Shown piece after piece: positions 2,036 to 19,536 of a DNA stretch of 21,480 nt. The position numbers and the translations under genes are program-made. The DNA lies in UHGV virus genome UHGV-0072741. One strand, 5' to 3'. The DNA comes from a virus. Every line of letters starts with the position of its first letter. Positions within the stretch are counted from its first letter, which is position 1. The notes beneath the pieces were generated by a model. The model worked only from the letters and a program-made list of their open reading frames with translations. It ran no database searches and was not told the DNA's origin.

Positions 2036-3657
2036 CAGGCCTGTCTCCCTAGCAACTCCCAGATGTTCAGGGCTGAATTCATTGGGGCATAGTTGATCAT
2101 CACCGAGTCGGCAAGATTTGGCGACCGGGTCCCATCAGGCTGTTTATCAATAACGATTTTTCCCACACCATTAATGGAATAGGTCGGCTGCGAAAGCTCG
2201 ATGATGAGTTTATCTTTGAGCGCCATGCTACTGCTGATTGAGATGATTTCGTCCGGGTTGTAAGCCATACCTTCAACCACGGCGCGCCAGGTATTCTGAA
2301 AAAGTTTACGTAACCGCCACCAGCTCTGAGCTTTGGCGTTAGCGAAGAAGTCCTTGTTCAGTCGTGCGGCTTGCCCGTTGTCCCCGCGAACAGCTTCATC
2401 ATCCGGATCAAATACCGCGCCACTGCCTCGAAACGGTGTGGCGAGTATTGACGGTCGGCGCGCAACGTTACGCAGTTCGTTGATAGCGCGCGCATCGCCG
2501 CGAACGCCAGCGCCCAGCCCGTCCTCGTCAAAGCGAAACTCTTCGATGTTGTCCTGTTCGCAAAAACCGAAGACCTTCTCGACGGACTGATAAATGTCGC
2601 TGCCCACACCGGACCATTCCCGCACATTTTCCAGGAGGAAGCCATGACGGGTGGAAAAGGCATTTTTGTCCCTGCCTTCGTCGGCGACATCCATCGCGCC
2701 AAGTCGTTTGCCTGTTGGCTGGATACCCAGTTTGATATGCGCATCAACGGCAGCCTGTACCCATTCGGATGGAATCAGGACGCCTTCCGCTGATGCGCTG
2801 TAGTTCAGATCAAGTTCCTGTGCCACCACCACCGGATTATCGATTTTCTCACATTCCCTGCGATACCACTCTTCATCCTTGCGAGGATCATCCCGCCAGT
2901 GGAATGTGAATACCGGTATCTTCCCGCCATGACGCTTCTGAGCGAACGGGTTAGCCATGCCGTTAACTGAACTCAGGTCGATACGGCAACGCGTCGTTTG
3001 TGACAACGCCGCATCAATCAGCAGAGGACGCTGAAGGAATGCAGCCTCATCAACCAGATAAAGCGTGGTACGGTCACCACGACCAATATTATCGCCAGCC
3101 TCGCCTTTGATAACGGCACCAGTTTCAGGAAACTCAACACGCATATATGGCGCGTGCTTCTTCTCGCTCCACGAACCGCGAAACTCTACAGGCAGTGTTT
3201 CCACGAACTTGCGCGCCTTCCAGAACAATGCTTTCGGGTCACCGGTGCTGTCGACGTATTCCTCTTTACGGGAGCCGAAACCGATAACCATTTCTTTGTT
3301 GAAGAGACAAAGCGAGCAGGCCAGTCCGATCGCGGTCCAACTGAGCCCCATTTCACGGGATTTTTCGGTAATACCATTCTCCCGATTGCCCCAGCGTTCC
3401 ATAATCCAGTGGATCCACTCCTCCTGCTTAGGGAAGAGTAAAAACGGAATGGTCACCGGCAGGCCATAATCAATATTACGCGGGTCCGTTGTCATGCCCC
3501 AGTCGATGATGAACTGAGCCGGATTGGTTCGGTAAAACTGTTTTAGTGCAGGCAATATTTCAGGATTCTGGCGAATGCGCTGTAGGCGTTCCATCCGCCA
3601 TTCAAAAACCATCTGGTAATCAGGATGTTTAAAATCGAAGGGGAATGGTAACGGCAT
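2035..3657 (-). CDS. Terminase large subunit (TerL)
   Basis: 540-aa ORF between small terminase and portal with sequence character of a phage terminase ATPase/nuclease; tightly spaced with its neighbours. Confidence 0.85.
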
Positions 3658-3659
3658 AC

Positions 3660-4232
3660 TTAGCCCATCATTTTTCTATACGCCTCTGCAGCCTGCTCCG
3701 GCGTTAAGTTGGTAATTTCTGTTCTGACTGGTCCTCCATCAGCGCCAGTCACTTCATTTTTGACGTTGTCTTTAAACGCCTGAACAGAAACATGACGCCC
3801 AAGCAACTCAAGGTTTTTAACCTTATCAGGCCACTTAATCTTTTTAAGGATCCCGACCATTTCTCTGTCATCTCCTCGCCCCTCAAACATTTCAGCGAGG
3901 TTAAATCCACTCAGGTACCGACGCCACGATTCCGGCCACGCAGACAGAGGCTTAATACTTAAATCGTCCTCCAGGATGTCAGCCACATCGAGCCTGTCGA
4001 TCTCAACCAGTCGCATCAGCACATAATTCGCATCAATGCCCAGTTGATCAATACGCTCCTGCTTTAGCTCGTTGATGCGGGCGCGTATCTCAGGTTTACC
4101 ATATAGTTCAGCCCCCGTAACATGTGCTCGCCTGGAGGCATAGCCTGCGCGAATAGCTGCTTGTGTAGCATTCAGATCGACAAGAAACTCGCGACAAAAC
4201 ACCTCGTGTTTTGCTTTCAGCTTCTTAGTCAT
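3660..4232 (-). CDS. Terminase small subunit (TerS)
   Basis: 190-aa ORF directly upstream of TerL; N-terminal [31 protein letters not shown] resembles the terminase small-subunit DNA-binding domain. Confidence 0.75.
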
Positions 4233-4293
4233 TTTATTTTCCAGTTATCAGGTCATTATCGAAGCCCCTCCTGGAAGAGCTTCTGTAATGCTA

Positions 4294-4818
4294 TTACCGG
4301 GACTGTTCTATTTGTCGGACACCAGCCAACTGGTTATTCGCCTTCTCGATGGCTGCCAACAGTGGGTTAATCCACAGAACAGCCTGGCAATATGTCAACG
4401 TTCTGGTGGTAGTGGCACGATCACTGGCTGAGTCAATGTCCCCGGAATCGGCGTGCAATGCGCTGGCGCGTAAACGGTTCGCGTAGTTGAGCAACCCGAC
4501 AGCAATATCAGCAGGAACAGGGAAATCACAGTTCTTTTCACGGAGCAGAACCTCACGGTATTTGATGACTGTCTTCTCGTGACCGATGTCGACCAGAGAA
4601 TTTAATCGGCTTGCGTTTTCTGCTATCTGGTTAAAACGATTGAAGTTTAATGCCTGATTAGCTATCACTTTCCCTTGATATTCAGCTTCACCTTCCGCTT
4701 TATCAGCCCGCAACTTTTCTGCCTGATACTTGCTGTGGTAATGGTTTGCAGACCAGACGAGCGCCCCAAAGGCAAAGAAGAAAAGTGCCGCGATGACAAT
4801 CTTATAAGTCAGCTTCAT
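4294..4818 (-). CDS. Rz: Rz-like i-spanin (lysis protein)
   Basis: 174 aa with an N-terminal transmembrane segment (IVIAALFFFAFGALVW) followed by a charged, coiled-coil-like periplasmic region; sits immediately after the endolysin. Confidence 0.7.
   Translation of the reverse strand: MKLTYKIVIAALFFFAFGALVWSANHYHSKYQAEKLRADKAEGEAEYQGKVIANQALNFNRFNQIAENASRLNSLVDIGHEKTVIKYREVLLREKNCDFPVPADIAVGLLNYANRLRASALHADSGDIDSASDRATTTRTLTYCQAVLWINPLLAAIEKANNQLAGVRQIEQSR
4395..4541 (-). CDS. Rz1: Rz1-like o-spanin lipoprotein embedded in the +1 frame of Rz
   Basis: Hand translation of the alternate frame inside Rz gives (GTG)MKRTVISLFLLILLSGCSTTRTVYAPAHCTPIPGTLTQPVIVPLPPER: signal peptide, lipobox LSGC and a proline-rich mature part. 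Too short for the ORF track. Confidence 0.5.
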   Translation of the reverse strand: MKRTVISLFLLILLSGCSTTRTVYAPAHCTPIPGTLTQPVIVPLPPER

Positions 4819-5278
4819 TTACCACCCCACCAGCATCTTTAAACCTGGAAATCAGGTCACCGATTTTATGTTCATACTGACCGTAACCTGCACCAGGTAA
4901 CGACGCCCAGATATTGCTGCAACGGTCGATTGCCTGACGAATATCTCCACGGTCAATCATCGGTAAAGCGCCACGCTCTTTAATCTGCTGCAGCGCCACA
5001 GCATCCTGACTTTCTGGCGAAAAATCTTTCAGGCCAAGCTGCTTGCGGTAGGCATCCCACCAGCGTGAAAGAAGCTGATACCGGCCTGCAGCTGTTGATT
5101 TAAGCTTCGGGTTGAGCGTGACAAGTTTGCGAGGGTGATCGGAGTAATCAGTGAACAACTCACCTCCGACGATAACGTCATAACCGTGATTACGTGTCGG
5201 TTGTCGCCCGTTATCCGTTCCTTCTGACCATGCCACCATATCCAGGAAAGCTTTACGTTGGGAATTTAGTGTCTGCAT
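4802..5278 (-). CDS. R: Endolysin, lambda R-type lytic transglycosylase
   Basis: 158 aa, near-identical over most of its length to lambda R as I recall it (QRKAFLDM.AWSEGTDNGRQ.TRNHGYDVIVGGELFTDYSDHPRKLVTLNPKLKST.AGRYQLLSRWWDAYRKQLGLKDFSP). Confidence 0.9.
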   Translation of the reverse strand: MQTLNSQRKAFLDMVAWSEGTDNGRQPTRNHGYDVIVGGELFTDYSDHPRKLVTLNPKLKSTAAGRYQLLSRWWDAYRKQLGLKDFSPESQDAVALQQIKERGALPMIDRGDIRQAIDRCSNIWASLPGAGYGQYEHKIGDLISRFKDAGGVVNEADL

Positions 5279-5281
5279 GAA

Positions 5282-5641
5282 TTACTCCTTAGAGCCACCA
5301 AACTTGTTACCGATTACTCGCATTGCAGCCCCACGAATAGCATCGACACCGATCAGCCCAACACCACCACCAATGGCAACAGAAAGCGATTTAGGCCATC
5401 CAACATACTCAAGAGCGGATGCAAAGGTCAGCGTCAGAGCACCACAGAGCAAAATCTCAAGCGTTTTTCGTTTCCAGCCGCCGCCACCGCCAAAATAGGC
5501 AATGCGCAAACCAGCCATAACAATTGACATAACCACTGCGCCCAACGGCGTATCTCCACGCCACCAACTTTGTAAGAGTTCCAGTAAGTCAGGCCAGGAA
5601 TGAGGAGCATTGTGCATTTTCATACTTCCCACCTCCGCCAT
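5282..5641 (-). CDS. Holin
   Basis: 119-aa ORF directly upstream of the endolysin with hydrophobic segments and a glycine-rich stretch; several N-terminal Met codons (MAEVGSMKMH) allow a possible dual start. Confidence 0.7.
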   Translation of the reverse strand: MAEVGSMKMHNAPHSWPDLLELLQSWWRGDTPLGAVVMSIVMAGLRIAYFGGGGGWKRKTLEILLCGALTLTFASALEYVGWPKSLSVAIGGGVGLIGVDAIRGAAMRVIGNKFGGSKE

Positions 5642-5715
5642 TACGGGGTGTTGTTGAAAGGCGGGCCCTGCGTATACGCCCGTAGGATTGGGTTATGAGC
5701 CGTCCTTCGGTGGGC

Positions 5716-5739
5716 CCTGAATACAAAAAAAGTTCGCCA
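5716..5739 (-). terminator. Intrinsic terminator on the minus strand in the Q-to-holin leader (tR'-like)
   Basis: Minus-strand RNA would read GUUCGC-UAUG-GCGAAC followed by seven U (forward: aaaaaaa gttcgc cata gcgaac). Lies downstream of Q and upstream of the holin, the expected place for the late terminator that Q reads through. Confidence 0.4.
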
Positions 5740-6026
5740 TAGCGAACCTTGTTAAATTTGTTAAAAAAGGAGGTTATTTAACATAATGTACGTTATAGGA
5801 ACCACACGATCACCGCTCGCAATAGATTTGCGATGAAAGGCCTGTTTAATCAACTTAAGTGGCCCAGAATGGCGAAATTCGAGTGAATAAAAGGTGCATA
5901 AAAAAGGGCAAACACTGCATAGCGTTTTTTCGCGACGAAAACCCTGTTTTATTAACTTTTACTGAGAACAGAGCATTAAAAAAGCCCCAATGATTTGGAG
6001 CTCTTCGTTGAGGTCAGAAATTCAAC

Positions 6027-6461
6027 TCATACCAGCGTAGCGCAGTTTTTGCGTAGCGCACTAATACTTTTTTCATCCCTTTGAATTTCGACCTCAGGAT
6101 CCATCTGAAGGCTCACACCCAGCATGCAGAGACACCCCTCAATGAATCCCTCTGCTACCTGCAACTGCTGGCGGATAAATCCTTCAGAACAGCGACGCCG
6201 CCGCCCTATCTCACGTTTGCTTAACCCGTAGACGTAGTACAGCATAATGACGTCCAGTTCCTCAGGCTTACGGACCTGCTGCAGCCGACAGACGCAAGCA
6301 TCGATAATCAGGCCATCGTCGTCACAGCAACTCAGCCTGCCAGGCGAGCTGCTGACTACCAGCCCTTTAAATCCCGCCGCTATTGGAGCCCAGCTCACTG
6401 TGGTGTTGCTATCGGCAGCCCAGCCACCCCAGCGCTCTAAAACCTGTTGAATATTACGCAT
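6027..6461 (-). CDS. Q: Late-gene antiterminator Q (phage antitermination protein Q family)
   Basis: 144 aa; MRNIQQVLERWGGWAADSN..SWAPIAAGFKGLV...CCDDDGLIID...YYVYGL matches the conserved pattern of Q-family antiterminators; located upstream of the lysis cassette. Confidence 0.85.
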   Translation of the reverse strand: MRNIQQVLERWGGWAADSNTTVSWAPIAAGFKGLVVSSSPGRLSCCDDDGLIIDACVCRLQQVRKPEELDVIMLYYVYGLSKREIGRRRRCSEGFIRQQLQVAEGFIEGCLCMLGVSLQMDPEVEIQRDEKSISALRKNCATLV

Positions 6462-6514
6462 AGCTCTGACCTCTACGTTTTGCTACGAAAAAATTTTCTG
6501 AGAACTACGTCTGT

Positions 6515-6534
6515 TTATCCGTGGGTGTGGATAA
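6515..6534. promoter_or_regulatory. Inverted pair of DnaA-box-like sequences
   Basis: tgtggataa at 6526..6534 is the exact reverse complement of the DnaA box consensus TTATCCACA; ttatccgtg at 6515..6523 is a 7/9 match on the other strand. Confidence 0.4.
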
Positions 6535-6591
6535 CGCAGTTCCGATTCGCATATTGCATGTATCAACATGCAAAAAGTTGCTAATTCGGAG

Positions 6592-6780
6592 TGGAACCAC
6601 CCGCCCCCACCTGGAACCACCTTTTCCTAACCTTTCCCTCAATCGACTTATATATATATATGGGGTTTCTAGTAGAAAGGCGGTTCCAGTGGTTCCAGTA
6701 GTTCCGACCCGCTTGCCACAAGGTCTGCAAGGTGGAACCACCTTCTCTTTTAGGTGGTTCCGCGTGGTTCCAGCGGTTCC
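6592..6780. repeat. Iteron array: about nine copies of GGTTCCA/TGGAACC flanking a (TA)n tract; candidate origin of replication
   Basis: TGGAACCA at 6592, 6612 and 6733; GGTTCC(A) at 6682, 6691, (6700), 6755, 6766 and 6775, at roughly one-helical-turn spacing; tatatatatata at 6649..6662. Lies between the primase stop and Q. Confidence 0.55.
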
Positions 6781-8936
6781 CAAACCTTGCATTTTTTCCC
6801 CCCAATTCGCCTTTGGGCACGCTTATACCCGCAATTTTGCAAAACATTACTAATTCGCATTTCTTCGCGTTTTCCGATGCGGTCAGGATTTAGCCCAATC
6901 GCATCACGCAAAACATCACTTGCGCGTAAAAATTCGCAATTCCGCGGAAGTTCATTAGTCATCAGGTCGGGCGTGTCGAGCCATTTCTCTACCGTTTCAA
7001 GCCAAGCATCCTTGATGGTGTACTGTTCATGGACACTCGCTGCCAGTTGTTCAGCCTCACGGAACTGGATACCCCCCAGACGCTGAAACACCTCACGAGC
7101 CTCAGCCCAAAGTAAAAGGAGATCTCTTTTTATCGCTTTCACGTCGACTTTCGACACTTCCACGGGGAGCCAGCGACGGTTACCAGTCTTGTCCGCAAGG
7201 AATTCGTCCTCATTGGTGGTACCAACGAACACCAGGCGACGAGGAAACTGGGTGGCGAACTCCCGGTATTTCGGGATCCAGTTTTCGTGAGTACGCGTCA
7301 CAAACGCTTTGATTGACTCCAGCTCTTTGGTATTAAGTCCGCGCAGTTCACCAATCTCTGCCACCAGCCGACCACGCATTTTTCGAGCGAGATCATCGTC
7401 TTTTTCGGCAAAAGAGATTTCAGTAAAAAACGCAGGATCAGGGCTCAGTGCCTCCACTCCGGAAGACTTACCGCAGCCCTGCGGACCAACGAGGATCGGC
7501 ACCATATCCGCTTTGATGCCTGGCTCCAGTACTCGCCCCGCCAACGCGGTCCACATGTACATAGACACCGCACGGGTATAAGGCGTGTCGGCGGTACCGA
7601 AGTGCGTATGGTAGAAACATTCGATGCGCGGCACGCCATCCCACTCCAGTCCGTTCAGCCAGGTGATCGCTGAATCAAATGGTTGTTCATCGGCTGCAAG
7701 TAACACCACATCGCGAATAAGTTCACGACCAACAGGTTTAAATCCCCGCTTTTCCATCGTGATGCGCAGGCGCGCATAATCCGCATCGGTGAATGCCCGC
7801 CATTGTCCGGATCCTGCAGGGGCAAACATGATTTCGTCGCGGAACTGGTCAAAGCGAATATCGATGTCCACAAAATCAGGGCGTACTACTGCTTTGGCTG
7901 CGTTGCTGATGGTTGCCTCGATACGCCCCCATTTATCACGCTCGAAAGCAGGCAGCGGTAAAGGTTCCGCCACTTCGGTGCTGGTCAGATCTTCGAAATC
8001 GTCGTTGCGGATCCCGATGGCATTAAGGAAATCTCCGTCATCACGATGCGCACAACTGGCATGCAGGCATTTAAAATGCCCCTGCTCAAAGCCCGCGGTT
8101 CCCGCAGGAAAATAAACTGTGCTTGTTGGATCGCCCCCGCTACTGTGGCCGTCTTCAAACGGACAGCGGATATATCGTTCACCATTTGCGCCATCCAGCA
8201 GCGTCCAGCCATTGGCATCAAGATATTCAGCTGTATCATCCGTCGCGCCGGGCGTGAATGCTGAACGGTCGCGCATCTTCGTGTTGCCCGCTTCGGTGGT
8301 TACCGACACAGGGAGTTGTTCAGCCAGGCGCTGCCACAGCGTTTCAAGCTGCTCACCTGTAATAGCCGGAGGTTCATCCGGCAAACCACCGTCCCATTCA
8401 ATACGCGCGCCGCTGCTGTGCGTACCGCAGGCAACGAACTGCTGCCCGTTCGCCAGCAACTCGATAATGCCCATATCCCCCGCTAGGCGATGGATACGCT
8501 TACGGAAATCACCATCAACGGCCAGCAGATACAGACACTTATTACTGTTTGCTCGCCAGCGTCGCGGCGGCAACTCACCCAGAAGTTGCACAAGCGTTTT
8601 GCGAATATCTGCCTGAATGTCTTCATCTTCGCTATCACAGTCCAGCGCCAGCCAGCCATGGCCTGTACGCACGCAGATGCCATAATCCGGTTCATTCGAC
8701 CAGCGGGCAAAATCATGCTCAGTAACAACATGCCCGGTCCATTGAGCAATACCGGTGACCTGGCGGTCCCGGTTATAGCGACTCGGCGTCTTACCCAACG
8801 CTTTCAGTTTACTATCAGGGGATATGGTCGCACTGGGGTTACATACAACTGGGAGAAGATGATCAGTTCTCCCCAATACCAGGTCGAAATGAAACCACTC
8901 ATCAGGCGTAGCTCCCCATGGTTTGCTATCGGACAT
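6750..8936 (-). CDS. Replication protein: primase (prim-pol-like N-terminus) fused to a D5/P4-alpha-like P-loop helicase
   Basis: 728 aa; Walker A GPQGCGKSS; cysteine/histidine-rich N-terminal region; follows the Cro-like gene in the early-right operon; the C-terminus overlaps the iteron array. Confidence 0.8.
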   Translation of the reverse strand: MSDSKPWGATPDEWFHFDLVLGRTDHLLPVVCNPSATISPDSKLKALGKTPSRYNRDRQVTGIAQWTGHVVTEHDFARWSNEPDYGICVRTGHGWLALDCDSEDEDIQADIRKTLVQLLGELPPRRWRANSNKCLYLLAVDGDFRKRIHRLAGDMGIIELLANGQQFVACGTHSSGARIEWDGGLPDEPPAITGEQLETLWQRLAEQLPVSVTTEAGNTKMRDRSAFTPGATDDTAEYLDANGWTLLDGANGERYIRCPFEDGHSSGGDPTSTVYFPAGTAGFEQGHFKCLHASCAHRDDGDFLNAIGIRNDDFEDLTSTEVAEPLPLPAFERDKWGRIEATISNAAKAVVRPDFVDIDIRFDQFRDEIMFAPAGSGQWRAFTDADYARLRITMEKRGFKPVGRELIRDVVLLAADEQPFDSAITWLNGLEWDGVPRIECFYHTHFGTADTPYTRAVSMYMWTALAGRVLEPGIKADMVPILVGPQGCGKSSGVEALSPDPAFFTEISFAEKDDDLARKMRGRLVAEIGELRGLNTKELESIKAFVTRTHENWIPKYREFATQFPRRLVFVGTTNEDEFLADKTGNRRWLPVEVSKVDVKAIKRDLLLLWAEAREVFQRLGGIQFREAEQLAASVHEQYTIKDAWLETVEKWLDTPDLMTNELPRNCEFLRASDVLRDAIGLNPDRIGKREEMRISNVLQNCGYKRAQRRIGGKKCKVWEPLEPRGTT

Positions 8937-8939
8937 GGG

Positions 8940-9152
8940 TTAAGCCTTTTTATCGTTTTGTGAGCCATACAACAGCCAATTAGGGTCGCAATCCAATGCT
9001 ATAGACATTTCAAGAAGATAACGTGGCCGAGCAATAACACCACTTTCAATTCTGTTTATTGCCTGCTGGCTCACTCCTGTGAGCTCAGCCAACGTAACTT
9101 GCGTCATTTTGAGTTCTTTACGTCGTTCTTTTACTCGGGTCGCTAAGGTCAT
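8940..9152 (-). CDS. Cro-like HTH transcriptional regulator (XRE family)
   Basis: Small HTH protein (MTQVTLAELTGVSQQAINRIE) divergent from the cI-like gene. Start placed at the ATG with GAGGTG upstream; the ORF-track start at 9170 has no RBS. Confidence 0.7.
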   Translation of the reverse strand: MTLATRVKERRKELKMTQVTLAELTGVSQQAINRIESGVIARPRYLLEMSIALDCDPNWLLYGSQNDKKA

Positions 9153-9272
9153 TGCTTTCACCTCATACAATTTTAGTGGTATTTAGCAACAACAAACGAG
9201 GTTTGTCAAATACAACAAAAATTGTTTTTAATGTGGGGATACACATTAATACAACCCAGAAGGACTAATCCC
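9153..9272. promoter_or_regulatory. Divergent promoter/operator region between the cro-like and cI-like genes (OR-like)
   Basis: Perfect palindromes ACAAAC-gag-GTTTGT (9192..9206) and AACAA-aaa-TTGTT (9214..9226) in a 120-bp AT-rich intergenic region between divergent HTH genes. Confidence 0.5.
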
Positions 9273-9896
9273 ATGTCTCTCGCAGCCCGTTTTAAAGCAC
9301 GTCGTTTGGAATTAGGAATGACTCAAGTGGAAGTAGCGAATTCTGCAGGGGTTAGCCAACAATCCATAGAATCCATCGAAAGTGGACGAACCAGAAAGCC
9401 ACGCAATCTTCTGGATCTGGCTAAGGCCTTGAAATGTAGCCCAGACTGGCTACTGAACGGTAAAAATATTATGCCTCTCACAGAGATAAGTACCAGACGC
9501 ATACCTATATTAAGCTACGTTCAGGCAGGAGAGCTTACAGAAGCAAGAGACATAACAGATCTGACAGGGGAATTTGAATATATTTTGGCAGACTCTGACA
9601 TTCCAGAAACATGCTTCGCATTACGTATTGATGGCGACAGCATGCAACCAGAGTTTAAAGAAGGAGACATTGTTATCATCGATCCTGATCTATGTCCTGC
9701 ACCAGGGGAGTTTGTTGTCGCCAAAAACGACGGTCACGAAGCTACATTTAAAAAATACCGTCCATTAGGAATCGGCATCGACGACTTTGAATTAATCCCC
9801 CTAAATCCTGATTACCCTATTTTTCGTAGTGCAGATATGAACTTACAGATCATAGGTGTAATGATCGAACACCGTATTTACCGCCGTAAACGTTAG
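9273..9896 (+). CDS. cI-like repressor: N-terminal HTH plus C-terminal S24 (LexA-like) self-cleaving peptidase domain
   Basis: HTH MTQVEVANSAGVSQQSIESIE; Ala-Gly cleavage site in YVQAGEL; catalytic Ser in GDSMQP and a downstream Lys. Start at the ATG preceded by AGGA; the ORF-track start at 9222 is a TTG. Confidence 0.85.
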   Translation: MSLAARFKARRLELGMTQVEVANSAGVSQQSIESIESGRTRKPRNLLDLAKALKCSPDWLLNGKNIMPLTEISTRRIPILSYVQAGELTEARDITDLTGEFEYILADSDIPETCFALRIDGDSMQPEFKEGDIVIIDPDLCPAPGEFVVAKNDGHEATFKKYRPLGIGIDDFELIPLNPDYPIFRSADMNLQIIGVMIEHRIYRRKR

Positions 9897-10000
9897 TATT
9901 CCCACCGTAAATATCGGGAGGCGTAACAGCCTCCCTTACCCCATTTGTAAAGTCTTACAAATTAAATTCACTTAAATATCAATAAAGTAGTATTCACATC

Positions 10001-10051
10001 CCACAAAATACCACATTTGTGGTTTACACAATACAACTCAAATTGTATCTT
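10001..10051 (+). promoter_or_regulatory. Candidate OL/pL-like operator-promoter downstream of the repressor gene
   Basis: Palindromes CCACAAA-N8-TTTGTGG (10001..10022) and TACAA-N6-TTGTA (10032..10047) share ACAA/TTGT half-sites with the OR palindromes; possible -35 TTTACA (10023..10028) and -10 TATCTT (10046..10051) with 17-bp spacing. Confidence 0.35.
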
Positions 10052-10206
10052 TAGCCACAAGTCGAACGGCGCGACTCTAAACCATGCGTCGGGACCGTGG
10101 CGGGACAGGATGTCGGCAATACGGGTCAGTAAGTTCCCTTTGGGGTGCGGCGAAGCACTGGGTCGAAGCCGCCGAACCACCAAAGTGAACTGAATGAGGA
10201 AACGGC

Positions 10207-10401
10207 GTGAAAACGTATAAACCGCTCAAAAGTGAATGCCCTGCTTGCCAAACACAGCTTCAGACACCAAAGCCAAAACGATACCAAATCAACGAATGTT
10301 ATGAGCACTGCCCTGGATGTGGTGCTTTCCTGCATACCATTGCAACGCACTGGCGTGTCCGCTTCAACCTTGTGGTACCACGTACGCACAATACCAACTG
10401 A
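10207..10401 (+). CDS. Small zinc-ribbon protein (CPAC...CPGC), first gene of the early-left operon
   Basis: GTG start with GAGGA 7 nt upstream; two CxxC pairs (CPACQ..., CPGCG); followed by a strong terminator. Confidence 0.4.
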   Translation: MKTYKPLKSECPACQTQLQTPKPKRYQINECYEHCPGCGAFLHTIATHWRVRFNLVVPRTHNTN

Positions 10402-10432
10402 ATCATCCATGTAATTGCTGTGTGTAGTCTTT

Positions 10433-10459
10433 GCCCGCCTCACGTGACGGGCTTTTTTA
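10433..10459 (+). terminator. Rho-independent terminator
   Basis: GC-rich hairpin gcccgcctcacgtgacgggc followed by tttttt, immediately after the zinc-ribbon ORF. Confidence 0.6.
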
Positions 10460-10484
10460 TGTCTGAAAGCACACTCGCAACAGT

Positions 10485-10667
10485 GTGCTCCCCGATATGA
10501 AAAAAGGAATACAACCGATGAAACCTGAATACCTCCATCGACTGACGGGGCGCGATGTTCTCCGTTATCGCCGTAAAAACTTCGATTTGATGACCGGTCT
10601 GGCCGTTGCCACTGCGCTCGGTCTGATCATCACTTTCATTCTCCTTGTAGCGAGGACCACAGTATGA
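10485..10667 (+). CDS. Small protein with a C-terminal transmembrane helix; start uncertain (GTG 10485, ATG 10497 or ATG 10518)
   Basis: C-terminal LAVATALGLIITFILLV hydrophobic segment; the ATG at 10518 has AGGA upstream; stop overlaps the start of the next ORF (ATGA coupling). Confidence 0.4.
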   Translation: MLPDMKKGIQPMKPEYLHRLTGRDVLRYRRKNFDLMTGLAVATALGLIITFILLVARTTV

Positions 10668-11568: not shown

Positions 11569-12870
11569 ATGCCAGACGTTCATGCACGACTTTCCCCGTC
11601 ATCGGCGCATCGATGGATGCGCTGCCCAGGAAGTCTGGCGCTGGAGGCCACACAACCGGATAAAGAAACAACTTTTGCAATCGAGGGCACTGCAGCGCAC
11701 GCGCTTGCTGAAAAAGTTCTACGAAACAGGCAAAGCCACCCGGAACACTACGCCGGATGCAATGTTTCTATGTTTCTCGGCTCATACCCCCTTCGCGAAA
11801 ATCCTGATGATACATCTGGCCCACAGGTGGATGATGAAATGGTCGAAGCCGTTGGCCGGTATGTTGATACGGTCTGGACTCTTGCACAGAATAATGAACT
11901 ATTGGTTGAACAACGTGTTGATTTCTCACATATAACGGGTGTGGAAGAATCTTTCGGAACTGCCGACGGCATAATCATCGCGGGTAACGAATTACAAATC
12001 CACGACCTGAAATATGGCAAAGGCGTCCGCATTGATGCAGAACAAAATGAGCAACTACAACTGTATGCTCTGGGTGCTCTCGAACAATTCAGCATGCTGT
12101 ATGACTTTGAGACTGTAAGATTATTTATTCACCAGCCAAGGCTCAACCACGTTTCAGAATGGTCGTTAACAGTACAGGAACTTCAGTCTTTCGGTGAACG
12201 GGCACAGGAGGCCGCAACCAGCGCGATCCTTGTTCTCAATATTGCCGAATGCGAAGGCATTGAGACACTACCGCTGGAAAACTTCATACCTGGAGAAAAA
12301 CAGTGCCGCTTCTGTAAAGCAAAAGCTATTTGCACTGCCCAGAAAATGCAGCATTTACAAACAGCAGCCAGCGATTTTGAAGATCTGACAAAGCCTGTCA
12401 GCGAAATAATCACCAATGCCAGCGCACGTGTACCTCTGTTAACCATTGAGCAGCTTGCGGAGATCTATAGCCAGGCCGACTTTATTGAATCCTGGCTAAA
12501 GGCAGTACGGGACCGGGTTCACAATGAACTCAATGCCGGACATCCGGTACCGGGGTTTAAACTGGTAACAGGAAAACAAGGTAACCGGGCCTGGAGTGAT
12601 GAAGAGGCAGCTCGCGCACTTCTGAAGGACCAGTTCAGGTACAAAACTGAAGAAGTATTCGACTTTAAACTTATTAGTCCCACAAAAGCCGAAAAACTTA
12701 TCAAAAAGGCCAGTCCGCGCCGTTGGTCAAAAGTCGAGGCACTGATAACACGAGCTGATGGTAAACCCACCGTCGTTCCCGAGTCAGACCCACGCCCCGC
12801 ACTCAATATCAACCCTGTAAATGATTTCGACGACGTATCCGACGATACGCTAACCGCAGACCTCATCTGA
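11569..12870 (+). CDS. DUF2800-family PD-(D/E)XK (Cas4-like) nuclease
   Basis: N-terminal [15 protein letters not shown] motif typical of DUF2800; cysteine cluster [10 protein letters not shown]; GGAGGG RBS; adjacent to DUF2815 and PolA as in known phage replication modules. Confidence 0.75.
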
Positions 12871-12885
12871 TTTAAGGAAATACCC

Positions 12886-13434
12886 ATGAAACTGAAGCTG
12901 AACAATGTTCGTCTGGCCTTCCCGTCTCTGTTTGAAGCTAAAACTGTAAACGGCGAAGGCGATCCGCGTTTCTCCGCAGTATTTTTAATGTCTCCCAAAC
13001 ACCCGCAACTGGAAGAAATCCGTAAAGCTATGAAGCAGGTAGCGAAGGAAAAATGGGGGGAGAAGTGGGAGTCCATTTATAACCAGCTGGAGAAAAAACT
13101 CAATCTGTGCCTGCATGATGGTGATGAAAAAGCAGAGTATGAAGGCTTTCCCGGCAATTTCTTCCTGAATGCTGCTAACAAAGCGCGCCCAGCTGTTCTT
13201 GATCGCGATCGTTCGCCACTAATTCAGGCTGATGGACGTCCCTATGCAGGGTGCTATGTAAACGCCGTTATCGATATCTGGGCACAGGACAATAATTTCG
13301 GTAAACGCATTAATGCCTCACTCGGCGGAGTCCAGTTCCTGCGAGACGGCGATGCATTTGCTGGCGGCGGAGTGGCAAGCGCTGACGATTTCGACGATAT
13401 CAGCGAAGGTGCTGATGCTGAAGCACTAATTTAA
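12886..13434 (+). CDS. DUF2815-family protein (phage replication module, SSB-like)
   Basis: 182-aa ORF with AAGGA RBS directly after DUF2800; conserved DUF2800-DUF2815-PolA synteny. Confidence 0.7.
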   Translation: MKLKLNNVRLAFPSLFEAKTVNGEGDPRFSAVFLMSPKHPQLEEIRKAMKQVAKEKWGEKWESIYNQLEKKLNLCLHDGDEKAEYEGFPGNFFLNAANKARPAVLDRDRSPLIQADGRPYAGCYVNAVIDIWAQDNNFGKRINASLGGVQFLRDGDAFAGGGVASADDFDDISEGADAEALI

Positions 13435-13485
13435 AAATATTCATCCCCCAGCTACGTGCTGGGGTATCTCATGAGGGAAAGAATA

Positions 13486-13665
13486 ATGTCACAGCCCGTA
13501 TTAACTAATCACCTTAAAACTCAAATCATCAATAACGCACTTGAGAAAGCGGGTATCCCCAAACGTAAATCAGCACTACGAGCTGCTCGTGTTGAATGGG
13601 CCGAACGTGTTCGGCTTGCAGCTATCGGGGGCGTAGAGAAAGAAGCTGAAATATTAAAAAAATAG
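13486..13665 (+). CDS. Hypothetical small protein
   Basis: ORF beginning MSQPVLTNHLK with GAGGGA upstream; the ORF track extends it to 13456. Confidence 0.4.
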   Translation: MSQPVLTNHLKTQIINNALEKAGIPKRKSALRAARVEWAERVRLAAIGGVEKEAEILKK

Positions 13666-13733
13666 AAACACTGGTATCAAAATTCCCCGAAGCATTAAAA
13701 ACCGCCAATAATATTATCAGGAAAGAGTGTTAC

Positions 13734-14114
13734 ATGTGTCTGAATCTGGCAGGTTCTCGGGTTACCGTCTATTTCAACGGTAACTATCGAGGATATGAAT
13801 CAGGGTCACCAGACCATATTCACAAAATCGCGCCGGGGGAATTTACCCTTCTGGCAAATGACCCTCTAGTTACAGAGTTTTACGGGTTTGATGCACTTTA
13901 TGAGCAGATACAGAGCGATGAGTCAGACATTCGACAGAATGTCAGCGCTGCACTCAGTAAAGTGCGCACAGTTAAGCGCCTGCTGGAAGAGTGGCCTGAA
14001 GCTAAAGAACTTCTGCCAGCCGATGCACCATCTGCTCCGCTTCCGCCAGCTATACGACGCGAAACTCTCAACGAAATGATCGGCCTCCCTTCTGACGAAG
14101 GGGTAGATGCTTAA
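13734..14114 (+). CDS. Hypothetical protein, 126 aa
   Basis: ORF with AGGAAAGAG RBS; no recognised motif. Confidence 0.5.
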   Translation: MCLNLAGSRVTVYFNGNYRGYESGSPDHIHKIAPGEFTLLANDPLVTEFYGFDALYEQIQSDESDIRQNVSAALSKVRTVKRLLEEWPEAKELLPADAPSAPLPPAIRRETLNEMIGLPSDEGVDA

Positions 14115-14181
14115 TATTTCTTATAACAAAGGCTGGCTTAAGAAAATAGTTATCCAAACCAGCCTACCGCAATACTAAAAA

Positions 14182-14451
14182 TTAAAATTCATTGAATTTA
14201 AAAAGACATTTCCCTATTGGATTGCCATAGTCTCTACATACCGAAATGCTGTCCCATACAGGCTGAGCCAAACACCCAAGAAAGAACCCAATAAGCGCAA
14301 AAATTATAATTTTGGGAAGAACACGATCCTTAGGACCTTCTTCACGTTCGAGCCATGCGCCACCAGCCCGAACTATTCTCCCTAAAATATAAAGAATGGG
14401 GAAAGCAATAATACCTATCAATGAAAGTATTCCGATACCAAAGCTAAACAC
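14182..14451 (-). CDS. Small two-helix membrane protein (89 aa) on the opposite strand inside the plus-strand operon
   Basis: GTG start with a perfect AAGGAG 6 nt upstream; two hydrophobic helices (FGIGILSLIGIIAFPILYILG; IIIFALIGFFLGCLA) and a cysteine-containing C-terminus; sits in a local AT-rich island. Confidence 0.5.
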   Translation of the reverse strand: MFSFGIGILSLIGIIAFPILYILGRIVRAGGAWLEREEGPKDRVLPKIIIFALIGFFLGCLAQPVWDSISVCRDYGNPIGKCLFKFNEF

Positions 14452-14507
14452 CGCCGTCTCCTTGTTTATTTACACCTACATAACCATATATCACACAAGG
14501 TTATTTT

Positions 14508-16571
14508 ATGTCCAATATACTATGGGGTGACCTAGAAACCTATTGCGAAATCCCTATTACGAACGGTACCCATGCGTATGCCGAAGGCGTTGAAGTGATG
14601 CTTTTCGCATGGGCTATCAACGACGGGCCAGTAAATGTGTGGGATATCACTGCCGGTGGTGGTATTCCACACGGCTTATACGAAGCAATCGCAGACCCTG
14701 AAACCCTGCTTTATTTCCATAACTCTCACTTCGACCGCACCGTTCTGCGTTATGCAATGCCGCGACTGGCACCGCCAGTCGAACGTTGGCGCGACACGAT
14801 GGTGCAGGCGCTGGCGCACGGTCTCCCGGGGTCTCTGGGGGAACTCTGCGAAGTACTAGGCGTCCCGCAAGACAAAGCGAAGGACAAAGAAGGTAAAGCG
14901 CTGATCCAGCTGTTCTGTAAGCCACGCCCGAAAAACAGCAAACTGCGTCGGGCCACCAGTAAAACCCACCCGGAAGAATGGCGGCGCTTTGTTGCTTACG
15001 CCGGACTGGATATCGAGGCAATGCGCGAAGTCTATAAACGTCTGCCGAAGTGGAATTATCAGGGGACAGAACTGGCGCTCTGGCATCGTGATCAGCAGAT
15101 CAATGACCGGGGCGTCTGCATGGACATGCAACTCGCACGCGCTGCGATCGAAGCGGTAGACCAGGAACAAAAGCGCCTGGCAAAGCGTACACAGGAAATG
15201 ACTGATGGCGAAGTGCAGGCAGCCACACAACGAGACGCGTTGATTAAGCACATTGTTGAATCCTACGGTGTGGAGCTACCAGACATGCAACGCAGTACTC
15301 TGGAACGTCGTATTGCCGACCCCGATTTACCATCTGCCGTGAAAGAACTGCTGGCTATCCGACTGCAGGCCAGTACTACCAGCACCAGTAAATACAAGGC
15401 ACTGATGAAAGGCGTAAGCCACGACGGGCGCTTACGCGGTACGCTACAGTTCTGCGGGGCGTCACGTACCGGTCGTTGGGCCGGACGGCTATTCCAGCCC
15501 CAGAATCTTCCCCGCCCTTCACTAAAACAGGAACAAATAGACGAAGGCATCGAAGCACTGAAAGCCGGATGTGCAGACCTGCTGTTTGACAATATCATGG
15601 AACTAACCAGTTCAGCGTTACGTGGCTGCATTATCGCGCCAACAGGCAAAAAACTGGTGGTAAGTGACTTGTCGAACATTGAAGGCCGTATGCTGGCATG
15701 GCTGGCAGGAGAAGAATGGAAACTGAATGCATTCAGAGAGTACGACGCCGGAACGGGTTCGGACTTATATAAACTGGCGTATGCAAAAGCTTTCGATATT
15801 ACACCAGATGATGTTGATAAACACATGCGTCAGATCGGTAAAGTCATGGAACTCGGTCTGGGTTATGGTGGTGGTGTGTCGGCCTTCATCACTTTTGCAC
15901 TGGTTTACGGTCTCGATCTCGACGAGCTGGCGAACGCCGCACTACCAAACATTCCCCGCGATGTTATCCGCGAGGCGAAAAGCTGGTACGACGAATCGGT
16001 TAAACGCAAGTCAACCTACGGGCTTTCTGAACGGGTATTTATCGCCTGCGACTCACTTAAACGTCTCTGGCGCCGGGCGCATCCCGCGACCTGTGATTTC
16101 TGGTACGAACTGGAGCGCACCGTCCGCACTGCAATCGCCACACCGCAAAAAACATTGTATTGCGGTTATCTTAAAATCCGCCGCGATGGCGCGTGGCTGC
16201 GCATACAGCTACCATCCGGACGCGCTGTATGCTACCCGTCTCCGGTTATCGAAAAAGGGAATATCACCTACATGGGGGTTAACTCTTATTCGCGTAAATG
16301 GCAACGACTCAAAACCTACGGCGGAAAGCTGGTGGAGAACGTTACCCAGGCGGCCGCCCGCGACGTTCTGGCCGGAAACATGCCGCTTATCGAAGATGCC
16401 GGTTACAGCATTGTGCTGACGGTACACGACGAGGTGATAACCGAAGCACCTGACACAGAAGATTTCAACGATAAAGCGCTTTCCGCGCTTCTCTCCAATA
16501 ACCCCGAATGGGCGCCCGATATCCCACTGAACGCTGGCGGTTTTGAGGCGTACCACTACCGTAAGGATTAA
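14508..16571 (+). CDS. Family A DNA polymerase (PolA-type, with N-terminal exonuclease-like region)
   Basis: Family-A motifs: DLSNIEGR (motif A-like), [16 protein letters not shown] (motif B), VHDEV (motif C); 687 aa. Confidence 0.9.
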
Positions 16572-17088: not shown

Positions 17089-17347
17089 ACGTGAAAGCCT
17101 TATCGAAAAGCACCTCGTCGCTGAAGTGAAAAAAGCTGGCGGAGTGGCCTTTAAGTTTGTATCTCCCGGTCACCGCTCGGTACCAGATCGCATTGTCCTG
17201 CTACCCGGTGGTCGTATCGTTTTCGTTGAATGTAAATCCCCCGGCAAACCACCACGACCTGACCAGTTGCGCACACATAAACGTCTGCGAAAGCTGGGCT
17301 TTACCGTGGTGGTACTGGATAGCAAAGATCTGGAGGAGATTATTTAA
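17078..17347 (+). CDS. VRR-NUC domain nuclease
   Basis: PDRIVLLPGGRIVFVECKSPGKPPRPDQ contains the D...E.K nuclease motif; ATG at 17078 overlaps the DUF4406 stop; the ORF track starts earlier at 17051. Confidence 0.7.
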   Translation: MAYERESLIEKHLVAEVKKAGGVAFKFVSPGHRSVPDRIVLLPGGRIVFVECKSPGKPPRPDQLRTHKRLRKLGFTVVVLDSKDLEEII

Positions 17348-18099
17348 AAAGATAGATGCCAGGTATCATCAAAACAATGCCTATAAAAGTTTATTTTTGC
17401 TTCATCTTTAACTCTTCTAAACTTCATTTTGGCATCATATGGAATCAGCACAAAATCTTTGTCGTATTCATCACAACGACCCAGAATGAAACCGTTACTA
17501 CTTTTAGAAAGTAGTATAAATGGAGCATCAGTTGTAGTTGAGAGCTCATTCTCACCGTTGTCAAATTCCGGATAAGAGACTTTATCGGATGATGAATTAA
17601 CGAATCCTGCAAGAAATGATAGCAGCAGTAGACATGTTGTCCCAATGATAGCGGAAGAAAATTTACCTATCAGTATAGATTTAAAAACATCGCTCCAAAC
17701 TACAATCATGATTATGAACACAACAACAATAATACCAAGACACACAAGGAAAATCGCTTTACCACTATAAATCAATAAGTACAGTTCTTTAGGGTTGAAA
17801 ACATTAAAGGTATAAACGCCTAAGATCCATATTGAGTAAACACCAGTAATAAGAAACCATATGAGCGACGTTCTTTTTGACAAGCCAAACCAAAAAACAC
17901 AAAGAAGCGGTAAAAATATCGTCAATATTTTAAATGAAGTTATAAGAATAATATTGATATTTATATCAATAAACTCTACAGGGTATTCAAAATAATAACT
18001 CTCCCCAAGCAAATAAGCATATGTCAAAATATAAAGCAATGCCGAAATAGTAGATATTGATGACAAATCCTTGAGGAATTCTCTAGCCGTAATTTTCAT
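17344..18099 (-). CDS. Multi-pass membrane protein of unknown function (251 aa); AT-rich moron and candidate accessory/defence gene
   Basis: About five predicted transmembrane helices followed by an ~80-aa soluble C-terminal domain; opposite strand to all neighbours; strongly AT-rich (by eye roughly 30% GC versus about 50% around it); has its own promoter. Confidence 0.65.
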   Translation of the reverse strand: MKITAREFLKDLSSISTISALLYILTYAYLLGESYYFEYPVEFIDININIILITSFKILTIFLPLLCVFWFGLSKRTSLIWFLITGVYSIWILGVYTFNVFNPKELYLLIYSGKAIFLVCLGIIVVVFIIMIVVWSDVFKSILIGKFSSAIIGTTCLLLLSFLAGFVNSSSDKVSYPEFDNGENELSTTTDAPFILLSKSSNGFILGRCDEYDKDFVLIPYDAKMKFRRVKDEAKINFYRHCFDDTWHLSF

Positions 18100-18130
18100 T
18101 ATATTTACTCAAAGTTATGTTAATGAGAAT

Positions 18131-18158
18131 ATTATATGTTCATCCAACACAGTTTCAA
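18131..18158 (-). promoter_or_regulatory. Near-consensus sigma70 promoter for the membrane-protein moron, overlapping the SNF2 helicase start codon
   Basis: Minus-strand reading TTGAAA-16 nt-TATAAT, about 31 nt upstream of the moron ATG; the -10 hexamer (forward 18131..18136) abuts the helicase ATG at 18136. Confidence 0.45.
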
Positions 18159-19536
18159 ACCTAGACTTTACCAAAATCTCATTATCAACCACGAGACCAA
18201 CACTCTGCGCGGCAATATCTGGGCAGGTATGGGAATGGGAAAAACCGTAGCGACACTCACCACGCTGGAAGATCTCTTCATGGCAGGGGCAGAAACACGC
18301 CCAGCGCTGGTCCTCGCGCCGCTGCGCGTGGCTGCCAGCACATGGCCGGATGAAGCACTGAAGTGGGGGCATTTGCGCAATATCGAGGTGCAGCCAATTA
18401 TTGGTAATGCCAAAGCGCGCTCTATGGCGCTGGCGAACAGCAACGCAAGCGTGTTCACAATCAACTACGATAACCTTGTCTGGCTGGTTGAGGAATTGGG
18501 AGAACGATGGCCGTTCGGTACTGTCATTCCAGATGAAAGCACCCGGCTAAAATCCTTCCGGCTGCGAGGTGGTGGTAAGCGCGCGGCGGCGCTGGGCAAA
18601 GTGGCGCATAAGTATGTCCGGCGCTGGATAAATCTCACCGGTACGCCAGCACCGAACGGCCTGGTAGATTTGTGGGGACAATCGTGGTTTGTGGACCAAG
18701 GGCAACGTCTCGGGCGCACTTACGGCGCGTTTACCTCACGCTGGTTCAACTCGATACAGTTTCCGGGACAGAGCTGGACTAAACTGGAACCTTTTGCTCA
18801 CTCACAGGGTGAAATACAGCGAGCATTAGCCGATGTGACCCTCTCGCTGGATGCGGCCGACTGGTTCGATATCAAAGACCCCATCCATAACGTAATCCGC
18901 GTGGATATGCCCCCGAAGGCCCGTCAGCAGTATCGTGAAATGGAAAAGGAAATGTTCCTCGAGCTGAATGGCGAAGGCATCGAAGCACCGAACGCCGCGG
19001 CAAAGACACTGAAGTGTCTTCAAATCGCTAGTGGCGCAGTATACACAGACGACACCGGAAGTTGGTCAGAAGTGCATGACACCAAACTACAGGCGCTGGA
19101 CAGCATACTGACCGAAGCAGCTGGCGTACCTGTGCTGGTTGCTTATCACTGGAAACACGATCTTGAACGCTTGCTTAAAGCATTCCCTCGCGGTCGTCAC
19201 CTCGACCAGGATCCACAGACACTGCGCGACTGGAATTCCGGAAAGATTCCTGTTCTCTTTGCACACCCAGCCAGCGCGGGCCACGGCCTGAACATGCAGG
19301 ACGGCGGAAATATACTGGTATTTTTCTCACACTGGTGGGACCTGGAGCAATATCAGCAAATTCTTGAACGTATCGGCCCCACCAGGCAGATACAGGCCGG
19401 ACACAATCGTCCGGTATTTATTCACCACATTATTGCTGCCGACACTATGGACGAAATGGTGATGGAGCGGCGCAACTCAAAACGAACAGTGCAGGACATC
19501 CTGCTCGATGCCATGAAAAAGAGAGGTATAGCATGA
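18136..19536 (+). CDS. SNF2-family (DEAD/DEAH-like) helicase
   Basis: Walker A GMGMGKTVATLT; DExx box VIPDESTRLK; 466 aa; tail of the replication module. Confidence 0.85.
   Translation: MFIQHSFKPRLYQNLIINHETNTLRGNIWAGMGMGKTVATLTTLEDLFMAGAETRPALVLAPLRVAASTWPDEALKWGHLRNIEVQPIIGNAKARSMALANSNASVFTINYDNLVWLVEELGERWPFGTVIPDESTRLKSFRLRGGGKRAAALGKVAHKYVRRWINLTGTPAPNGLVDLWGQSWFVDQGQRLGRTYGAFTSRWFNSIQFPGQSWTKLEPFAHSQGEIQRALADVTLSLDAADWFDIKDPIHNVIRVDMPPKARQQYREMEKEMFLELNGEGIEAPNAAAKTLKCLQIASGAVYTDDTGSWSEVHDTKLQALDSILTEAAGVPVLVAYHWKHDLERLLKAFPRGRHLDQDPQTLRDWNSGKIPVLFAHPASAGHGLNMQDGGNILVFFSHWWDLEQYQQILERIGPTRQIQAGHNRPVFIHHIIAADTMDEMVMERRNSKRTVQDILLDAMKKRGIA

Follow-up and report, generated by a model that had tools for sequence, protein, structure and literature searches.

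An antisense gene in an AT-rich island before polA

The DNA analyzed here, hereafter the window, is a stretch of 21,480 nucleotides (nt) of the virus genome UHGV-0072741 and is a temperate Escherichia coli prophage, whose nearest annotated relatives are prophages lying beside yfhL (e.g., that of UPEC 26-1) and the isolated phage vB_EcoM-606R2. Our subject is a small gene on the minus strand of this prophage, which lies in an AT-rich island within the replication operon, directly before the family A DNA polymerase gene (polA), and codes for a protein of 89 amino acids (aa). The gene and the signals that surround it are as follows:

14182 to 14451, minus strand: coding sequence of the 89-aa predicted inner-membrane protein, with a GTG start codon at 14451 to 14449 and a TAA stop codon
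14458 to 14463, minus strand: Shine-Dalgarno (SD) sequence AAGGAG, separated from the GTG start by a 6-nt spacer
14122 to 14165, minus strand: intrinsic terminator of the 89-aa gene, starting 17 nt past the TAA stop and ending in UUUGUUAU
14485 to 14514, minus strand: weak candidate sigma-70 promoter of the small gene, read by eye

A preliminary description of this DNA had reported a minus-strand open reading frame (ORF) of 89 codons with a GTG start and an AAGGAG SD sequence, its two-helix membrane character, its position in an AT-rich gap of about 390 bp, and its convergence with the upstream plus-strand gene, all of which we could recover. The 393 bp from 14115 to 14507 have a GC content of 37.7%, against 49.7% for the window, and the ORF itself stands at 39.3%, against 49 to 54% for its neighbors, with a GC content at third codon positions of 30%, against 42 to 56% in the neighboring genes. 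The translated protein has two hydrophobic segments with a Kyte-Doolittle mean above 2, at about residues 3 to 24 and 44 to 66, and the convergent partner is the ORF at 13734 to 14114 on the plus strand, the C-terminal portion of an Nmad5 gene. The protein is identical or near-identical to WP_000490740.1, a hypothetical protein of the NCBI pipeline, and PGAP annotates the same ORF in UPEC 26-1 and CAU16175. There is no internal in-frame methionine, and the GTG start is right, since homologues align from residue 1. The region around the SD sequence and start codon folds no better than its shuffles (-9.2 kcal/mol; z = +0.94). The length of the ORF is by itself suggestive, being unusual with respect to chance but not decisive, as an ORF of at least 89 aa arises in 58 of 5,000 shuffles (1.2%) of the 393-bp region. 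It is conservation that settles the question in favor of a real gene: the 118 homologous protein clusters with invariant residues described below rule out the suspicion that the ORF is an artifact of AT-rich sequence without conservation.

An inverted repeat does exist between the two convergent genes, as had been noticed earlier, with its core at 14132 to 14164. Its earlier interpretation as a bidirectional terminator does not survive closer analysis. In the minus-strand RNA, the repeat forms a 13-bp stem (14165 to 14130) with one bulge, G-U pairs and a 9-nt loop, followed by the U tract UUUGUUAU; this hairpin has a folding energy of -23.5 kcal/mol (z = -3.0), and none of 200 shuffles is equally stable. 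The plus-strand fold comprises just 7 bp around a 22-nt loop, has no U tract, and is indistinctive in stability (z = -0.3). Since the hairpin is stable and U-tailed only as minus-strand RNA, it is best understood as a terminator of the small gene alone. A promoter consensus scan of positions 13400 to 14800 yielded no plus-strand promoter-like site, and the island holds no plus-strand terminator. Given that no plus-strand promoter was found in the island, a plus-strand terminator would cut off polA and the later genes from the early transcript; a hairpin that works on one strand makes sense because early transcripts must read through the island to polA.

The candidate promoter of the small gene consists of a -35 element, TGGACA (14514 to 14509), which matches the consensus at five of six positions on the minus strand, an 18-nt spacer, and an extended -10 element, TGaTATATG (14493 to 14485). 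The -35 element overlaps the ATG of polA on the opposite strand and is the reverse complement of the first polA codons. A homologue in Serratia found at the same place (see below) has TGGACA followed by 17 nt and TAGATT (locus L008 near 8946). This conservation of the -35 element within the polA flank in E. coli and Serratia suggests that it could serve whichever antisense cargo occupies the position.

A family of small two-helix proteins with an invariant cysteine pair

An exhaustive HMMER scan retrieved 118 protein clusters at E values of ≤1e-3, including 36 at ≤1e-10, which are nearly all 85 to 95 aa long and align end to end. Such an exhaustive search was needed to reveal the family; a word-index protein search gave E. 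coli copies only, and a search of IMG/VR likewise returned only near-identical E. coli copies. Searching genome contigs with a degenerate DNA pattern gave 18 loci, 7 of which are true family members by hidden Markov model (HMM). Against isolated phages, neither the window protein nor thereafter the family consensus found a match by tblastn; the family member P0061 used as the query led to Pseudomonas phage Pacha_bin_1. The members confirmed by HMM come from Serratia, Pantoea, Xanthomonas, Thiotrichales, Polaromonas, Undibacterium, Herbaspirillum, Castellaniella, Sulfuricurvum, and one Pseudomonas phage, so that the family is spread widely but patchily over the Gamma-, Beta-, and Epsilonproteobacteria.

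Comparisons with described families were negative throughout. Pfam, PHROG, NCBIfam, and PADLOC gave nothing above noise for the 89-aa protein, and Pfam and PHROGs revealed no family common to 64 aligned members, of which only 2 were matched by phrog_8574 (unknown function). A sequence search of the PDB with the 89-aa protein returned no significant relative, Foldseek comparisons of its model with the PDB and BFVD gave no match below E = 1, and we found no literature on the accession, the related phages, or Pacha. The protein family is undescribed; the type of element in which it occurs here, a moron with a small membrane protein, is well known.

In a 64-member alignment, all sequences share G59, C72, and C82 and nearly all share G7, G55, and Q63; the two cysteines are aligned in 107 of 116 members. 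Two motifs are conserved: the loop that joins the helices has AW..R...PK[D/E]RV, and the segment that follows helix 2 has QP.WD....C...G.....C. The predicted topology of the 89-aa protein is as follows:

Residues about 3 to 24, first TM (transmembrane) helix; 25 to 47, loop; about 44 to 66, second TM helix; 67 to 89, C-terminal tail with C72 and C82

Averaged over 116 members, the inter-helix loop contains 5.2 lysines and arginines, the N-terminal tail contains 0.4, and the C-terminal tail contains 2.3; the count in the loop exceeds that in the tails in 102 of the 116. By the positive-inside rule, a loop so charged would be cytoplasmic and both termini would be periplasmic. We accordingly predict an inner-membrane location, from the two TM helices and the positive-inside loop, and an N-out/C-out topology with a cytoplasmic loop and a periplasmic C-x9-C tail. 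A periplasmic tail fits the invariant cysteine pair, because a disulfide is possible in the periplasm. An AlphaFold model built with the family alignment has a predicted local distance difference test (pLDDT) score of 87.8 and helices at residues 8 to 34, 44 to 74, and 79 to 86, limits that place C72 and C82 on the two flanks of a short turn. These residues probably form a disulfide that pins a periplasmic helix-turn-helix.

A swappable cargo slot between DUF2815 and polA

The small gene is one of several alternative occupants of a defined position in the replication operon, whose relevant features are listed here in order:

11569 to 12870, plus strand: DUF2800 nuclease
12886 to 13434, plus strand: DUF2815/Enc34-type single-stranded-DNA-binding protein, with its stop at 13434
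13435 to 14507: cargo slot, from the DUF2815 stop (13434) to the polA ATG (14508), holding a frameshifted Nmad5 gene and the 89-aa gene in the window
13486 to 14114, plus strand: broken Nmad5 (PF18757) gene, with Pfam matches to profile positions 3 to 55 and 86 to 206
14508 to 16571, plus strand: family A DNA polymerase (polA), with its ATG at 14508

Downstream of polA, the plus strand continues with ANR, DUF7446, VRR-NUC, and SNF2 genes, in that order.

Homology to relatives with other cargo ends exactly at the DUF2815 stop and at the polA ATG. In the comparison of presence and absence proposed in the preliminary description, the flanks are matched in 159 of 5,426 complete E. coli genomes and the island is present in 32 of these, which leaves 127 of the 159 related prophages without the 89-aa gene. 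All 32 copies of the island are at least 99.5% identical and always occur in this context, with the ORF intact in 31; F11, NCTC9022, UPEC 26-1, and CAU16175 are among the strains that have it. The gene is likewise missing from the phage vB_EcoM-606R2, whose slot contains another antisense ORF. Of 60 evenly spaced records in which we classed the slot contents, 12 have Nmad5 with the 89-aa gene, 10 have Nmad5 with a gene for a 229-aa antisense soluble protein, 30 have a lone antisense gene, and 2 have a BRO-N gene; the other 6 are partial matches. The lone-gene class has two forms among the loci read, one of 209 aa with a GC content of 29% (IAI1 and 606R2) and one of 199 aa with a GC content of 32%; both of these antisense proteins have an N-terminal TM helix and C-terminal TM helices. 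None of these antisense proteins matched any known family. In E. coli prophages, at least five interchangeable alleles share the cargo slot at the DUF2815-polA junction, and three of the alternative genes are likewise antisense and AT rich.

The Nmad5 gene that shares the slot with the small gene is disrupted in the window. Alignment with an intact 213-aa allele shows that an A-rich run near 13656 has lost 10 bp, which leaves ORFs of 69 and 126 aa. Strain CAU16175 has an unbroken copy, and the copy in UPEC 26-1 has a separate frameshift; these differences among strains indicate that the lesion is strain specific.

As a separate observation, the Nmad5 gene is mosaic between slot alleles (window positions 13486 to 14114 versus positions 687 to 1328 of the E. 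coli locus L012). In the aligned 5' stretch up to the 10-bp gap, the allele that accompanies the 89-aa gene and the one that accompanies the 229-aa gene differ by one mismatch in our count; beyond the gap they are clearly more divergent, with roughly 75% identity by eye. A near-identical 5' part joined to a divergent remainder implies a recombination breakpoint within the gene.

Contexts of homologues in other phages and genomes

A homologue from Serratia nevei is 49% identical to the window protein and occupies the same slot, antisense between DUF2815 (72% identity) and polA (73.6%). It begins with ATG at the aligned position, 8 nt after AGGAG, and has a GC content of 43% against 62% for its surroundings. 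The Serratia element (loci L008, L009, and L010, about 2000 to 10500) is a prophage remnant of about 8.5 kb without structural, repressor, or integrase genes, which keeps the tail of DUF2800, DUF2815 with a frameshift, polA (in some strains intact, in others frameshifted), SNF2 fragments, and an intact small gene. We considered whether survival of the small ORF in this decaying prophage is proof of selection and gave it little weight, as a 279-bp target will often escape by chance.

Further phage-borne members occur in other modules. In a Pantoea lambdoid prophage, the gene belongs to an antisense block that separates the lysis genes from terminase, and in Pacha_bin_1, whose member scores 88.9 bits against the family HMM and has a GC content of 54% against 64%, it lies antisense directly after the endolysin and holin genes. 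An Undibacterium prophage has a member on the antisense strand of its early region, close to a CI-type repressor gene; one in an integrase-primase element is convergent with the adjoining repressor gene; and one in a lambda-like phage lies on the same strand as its neighbors, between terminase and portal. Five of the six phage or prophage members are antisense to their surroundings, which is the usual arrangement of genes expressed from a repressed prophage. The bor gene of phage lambda, which codes for an outer-membrane lipoprotein, is an antisense gene located just downstream of the lysis cassette and is expressed from the prophage. The Pantoea and Pacha_bin_1 members lie in the same antisense place beside lysis genes and follow the same logic of antisense cargo expressed in the lysogen; the sequences are unrelated, however, and the window copy is situated in the replication module, away from the lysis genes.

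Outside phages, the family has no constant partner. Three members lie 15 to 33 nt 3' of type I secretion/RTX-associated genes, on the same strand (L016/L017, 9001 to 9336; L022, 8001 to 8276; L023, 8001 to 8258), the upstream genes being an ABC/MFP/OEP/HlyC operon, an ABC transporter gene, and the gene for a 1,281-aa RTX protein; these three cases may be orthologous loci. Two members come just after pairs of polymorphic toxin and immunity genes, with Tox-SHH and AHH toxins, respectively; two are beside toxins of toxin-antitoxin (TA) systems; two follow flavoprotein oxidoreductase genes; one follows an insertion sequence; and one is on a Sulfuricurvum plasmid.

A membrane protein moron with a possible role in superinfection exclusion

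By the definition of Juhala and Hendrix (as given in PMC3594210), the island has three hallmarks of a moron. It is extra DNA, absent from vB_EcoM-606R2 and from most of the related prophages; its base composition deviates in the window as well as in Serratia and Pacha; and it brings its own terminator in the form of the minus-strand hairpin and U tract. For the promoter that the definition also names, the island offers the weak candidate described above, and expression from the repressed prophage is predicted. We are highly confident that the island, lodged among the replication genes of a temperate E. coli phage, is a real membrane protein moron.

As to what the protein does, the earlier proposal offered either an exclusion factor or a type I toxin-like peptide. 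The former half of this proposal stands as the most plausible role, given the anatomy of the cassette and the comparative genomics, and the latter is disfavored for reasons given below. We advance superinfection exclusion tentatively, as a possibility suggested by analogy with known systems. The gene is antisense to the early operon and has a strong SD sequence, a terminator, and probably its own promoter overlapping the start of polA. With antisense signals of its own, it should be expressed in the lysogen, during repression of the early operon; once the prophage is induced, early transcripts that converge on it and run through to polA would damp it. The protein would most likely act alone at the inner membrane, protecting the lysogen, and the most likely mechanism would be to block the incoming phage DNA or the tail-tip complex at that membrane, as the small membrane proteins HK97 gp15, T4 Imm, and P22 SieA do.

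One of the closest functional precedents is gp15 of phage HK97, a 62-aa inner-membrane moron protein of superinfection exclusion (PMC3594210, summarizing Cumby et al. 2012). It resembles the 89-aa protein in its small size, its place in the inner membrane, and its gene, an add-on cassette in a phage operon with a terminator and a deviant composition of its own, as well as in being absent from close relatives, acting alone, and having homologues also outside prophages. It differs in its shorter length and in the position of its gene, which lies within the tail operon and on the same strand, and it has no sequence relationship to the 89-aa protein (hhalign probability, 1.4%), which is encoded antisense in a replication operon, has two TM helices and a C-x9-C tail, and for which the function is proposed here by analogy. 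The Imm protein of phage T4 and the SieA protein of phage P22, the other two precedents, are exclusion proteins described in PMC11436027. Imm, which blocks DNA injection, is comparable to the 89-aa protein in its size (83 aa), its membrane character with two hydrophobic segments, and the position of its gene, which adjoins the DNA polymerase gene 43. In contrast, it lies on the same strand as gene 43 in a virulent phage, lacks the conserved cysteine pair, and has no homology to the 89-aa protein (hhalign probability, 0.6%). The Pfam family Imm_superinfect matched no member of the family. Our tests of homology with exclusion proteins covered T4 Imm and HK97 gp15 by hhalign, and P22 SieA is likened by function only. 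The 89-aa protein may thus work like gp15, Imm, and SieA without kinship to gp15 or Imm at the family level.

Several points weigh against an exclusion role. The hhalign probabilities given above for Imm and gp15 are negligible, and neither Foldseek, with nothing below E = 1, nor PADLOC offered a match. Many members of the family lie outside phages, in type I secretion/RTX, toxin-immunity, and TA contexts or among ordinary genes, so the basic activity of the family may not concern phages. The conserved position in the replication module in two genera could instead indicate a role in the phage cycle. Expression in the lysogen is a prediction from the arrangement of signals; the consensus scan called no promoter for the small gene, and the candidate -10 element lacks the T at position 6 (-7).

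A broader and more speculative possibility, which we hold to be doubtful, is that the family comprises portable envelope protection modules, with two TM helices and a periplasmic C-x9-C hairpin, that would each on their own seal the inner membrane against macromolecules in need of crossing it, namely, phage DNA or tail complexes and perhaps secreted toxins. This would account for the occurrence of members in accessory slots of prophages, on plasmids, in toxin-immunity islands, and at type I secretion loci, over at least three proteobacterial classes.

If superinfection exclusion is indeed the role, the proteins would constitute a new single-gene family that blocks DNA injection, with a bearing on host range in phage therapy, as E. 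coli lysogens, uropathogenic ones among them, carry the gene. If they have no exclusion activity, the gene is an ordinary unannotated prophage accessory gene. The DUF2815-polA junction is a natural place to look for further defense or conversion genes.

Alternative roles

Of the other explanations, the one that fares best, although we consider it rather unlikely, is a modulator in lysogenic conversion, which would bind a host inner-membrane protein, such as a sensor kinase, transporter, or protease, and thereby alter host physiology. It accords with a solitary gene that has no constant partner in more than 15 contexts, with conserved motifs on both membrane faces and a periplasmic cysteine pair, and with the many members outside phages. 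MgrB is a small protein that modulates an inner-membrane partner and likewise depends on periplasmic cysteines. However, the 89-aa protein has no homology to known small regulators, the wide and patchy spread over three proteobacterial classes argues against a lineage-specific host target, and the swapping of alleles in the slot resembles the turnover of defense or exclusion cargo.

We regard as unlikely that the protein is an orphan immunity-type protein against a membrane-acting toxin of competitors, such as a bacteriocin or a type I-secreted or polymorphic toxin, picked up as cargo beneficial to the host. Microcin and colicin V immunity proteins are similarly small, with two TM helices. The idea draws on the three members directly 3' of type I secretion/RTX genes on the same strand, the two that follow the Tox-SHH and AHH toxin-immunity pairs, and the two beside TA toxins. 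It is countered by the lack of an identifiable cognate toxin beside the E. coli, Serratia, Pantoea, and Pseudomonas phage copies and by the nature of the adjoining toxins, since those with recognizable domains are nucleases, whose immunity proteins are cytoplasmic; further, the three members next to type I secretion genes may be orthologous loci of related Betaproteobacteria and thus perhaps only one event.

A role in the phage life cycle itself, in replication or lysis timing (e.g., as a membrane anchor of the replisome or an antiholin), with the gene kept near polA for that reason, is in our estimate quite unlikely. What speaks for it is the retention of the DUF2815-polA position in E. coli and Serratia despite only 49% protein identity. 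The small gene, however, is antisense to the replication operon and missing from 127 of 159 otherwise near-identical prophages and from vB_EcoM-606R2, an absence that marks it as dispensable, and other members reside in unrelated modules, plasmids, and chromosomes. Moreover, the prophage has a lambda family holin and lysis genes of its own elsewhere. We rejected a holin or antiholin function specifically, as the lysis cassette, with the lambda family holin, a GH104 endolysin, and LysC, is about 9 kb away (roughly 4300 to 5640) and the small gene is mostly absent from relatives.

It is very unlikely that the gene codes for a type I toxin or abortive infection effector, that is, a depolarizing peptide silenced by antisense RNA and released upon infection or prophage loss. 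Type I toxins are usually less than 60 aa long, with one TM helix. Like Hok, TisB, ShoB, Ibs, and Ldr, the 89-aa protein is small and hydrophobic and is predicted to lie in the inner membrane, its mRNA could be opposed by antisense RNA, as the long early transcript is antisense to the gene and could pair with it, and the island is AT rich. It differs from those toxins in its greater length, its second TM helix, and its conserved and folded periplasmic tail, which bears the invariant cysteine pair; its SD sequence is strong and open (z = +0.94), with no leader that sequesters it, and there is no repeated or partner locus. The search for an antisense small RNA partner that had been suggested earlier found no candidate among described RNAs, as Rfam gave no match at E ≤ 1 and no plus-strand promoter-like site occurs in 13400 to 14800; together, these features disfavor the toxin-like peptide of the preliminary description.

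That the ORF is a spurious one in an AT-rich spacer, from which no protein is made, is hardly credible. For it are the 1.2% of region shuffles that give at least 89 aa and the empty promoter scan. Against it are the 118 clusters of homologues, alike in length and sharing invariant residues across several proteobacterial classes; the Serratia homologue, which occupies the same slot and has its start and SD sequence conserved; and an intact ORF in 31 of 32 E. coli copies.

Other variable positions in the replication region

The window contains a further antisense ORF at 17344 to 18099 on the minus strand, between VRR-NUC and SNF2, which codes for a 251-aa protein with several TM helices and has a GC content of 32.5%. 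It matched nothing in Pfam or PADLOC. The island around it (17251 to 18250) is the most AT-rich stretch of the window, with a minimum of 28% GC, and is probably a second moron.

In vB_EcoM-606R2 (L001, 5892 to 6653) and in one Serratia remnant (L009, 6052 to 6813), a TIR-like (CAP12-PCTIR) gene that the window lacks is found just after polA, and its varying presence among relatives suggests another accessory or defense slot at that position.

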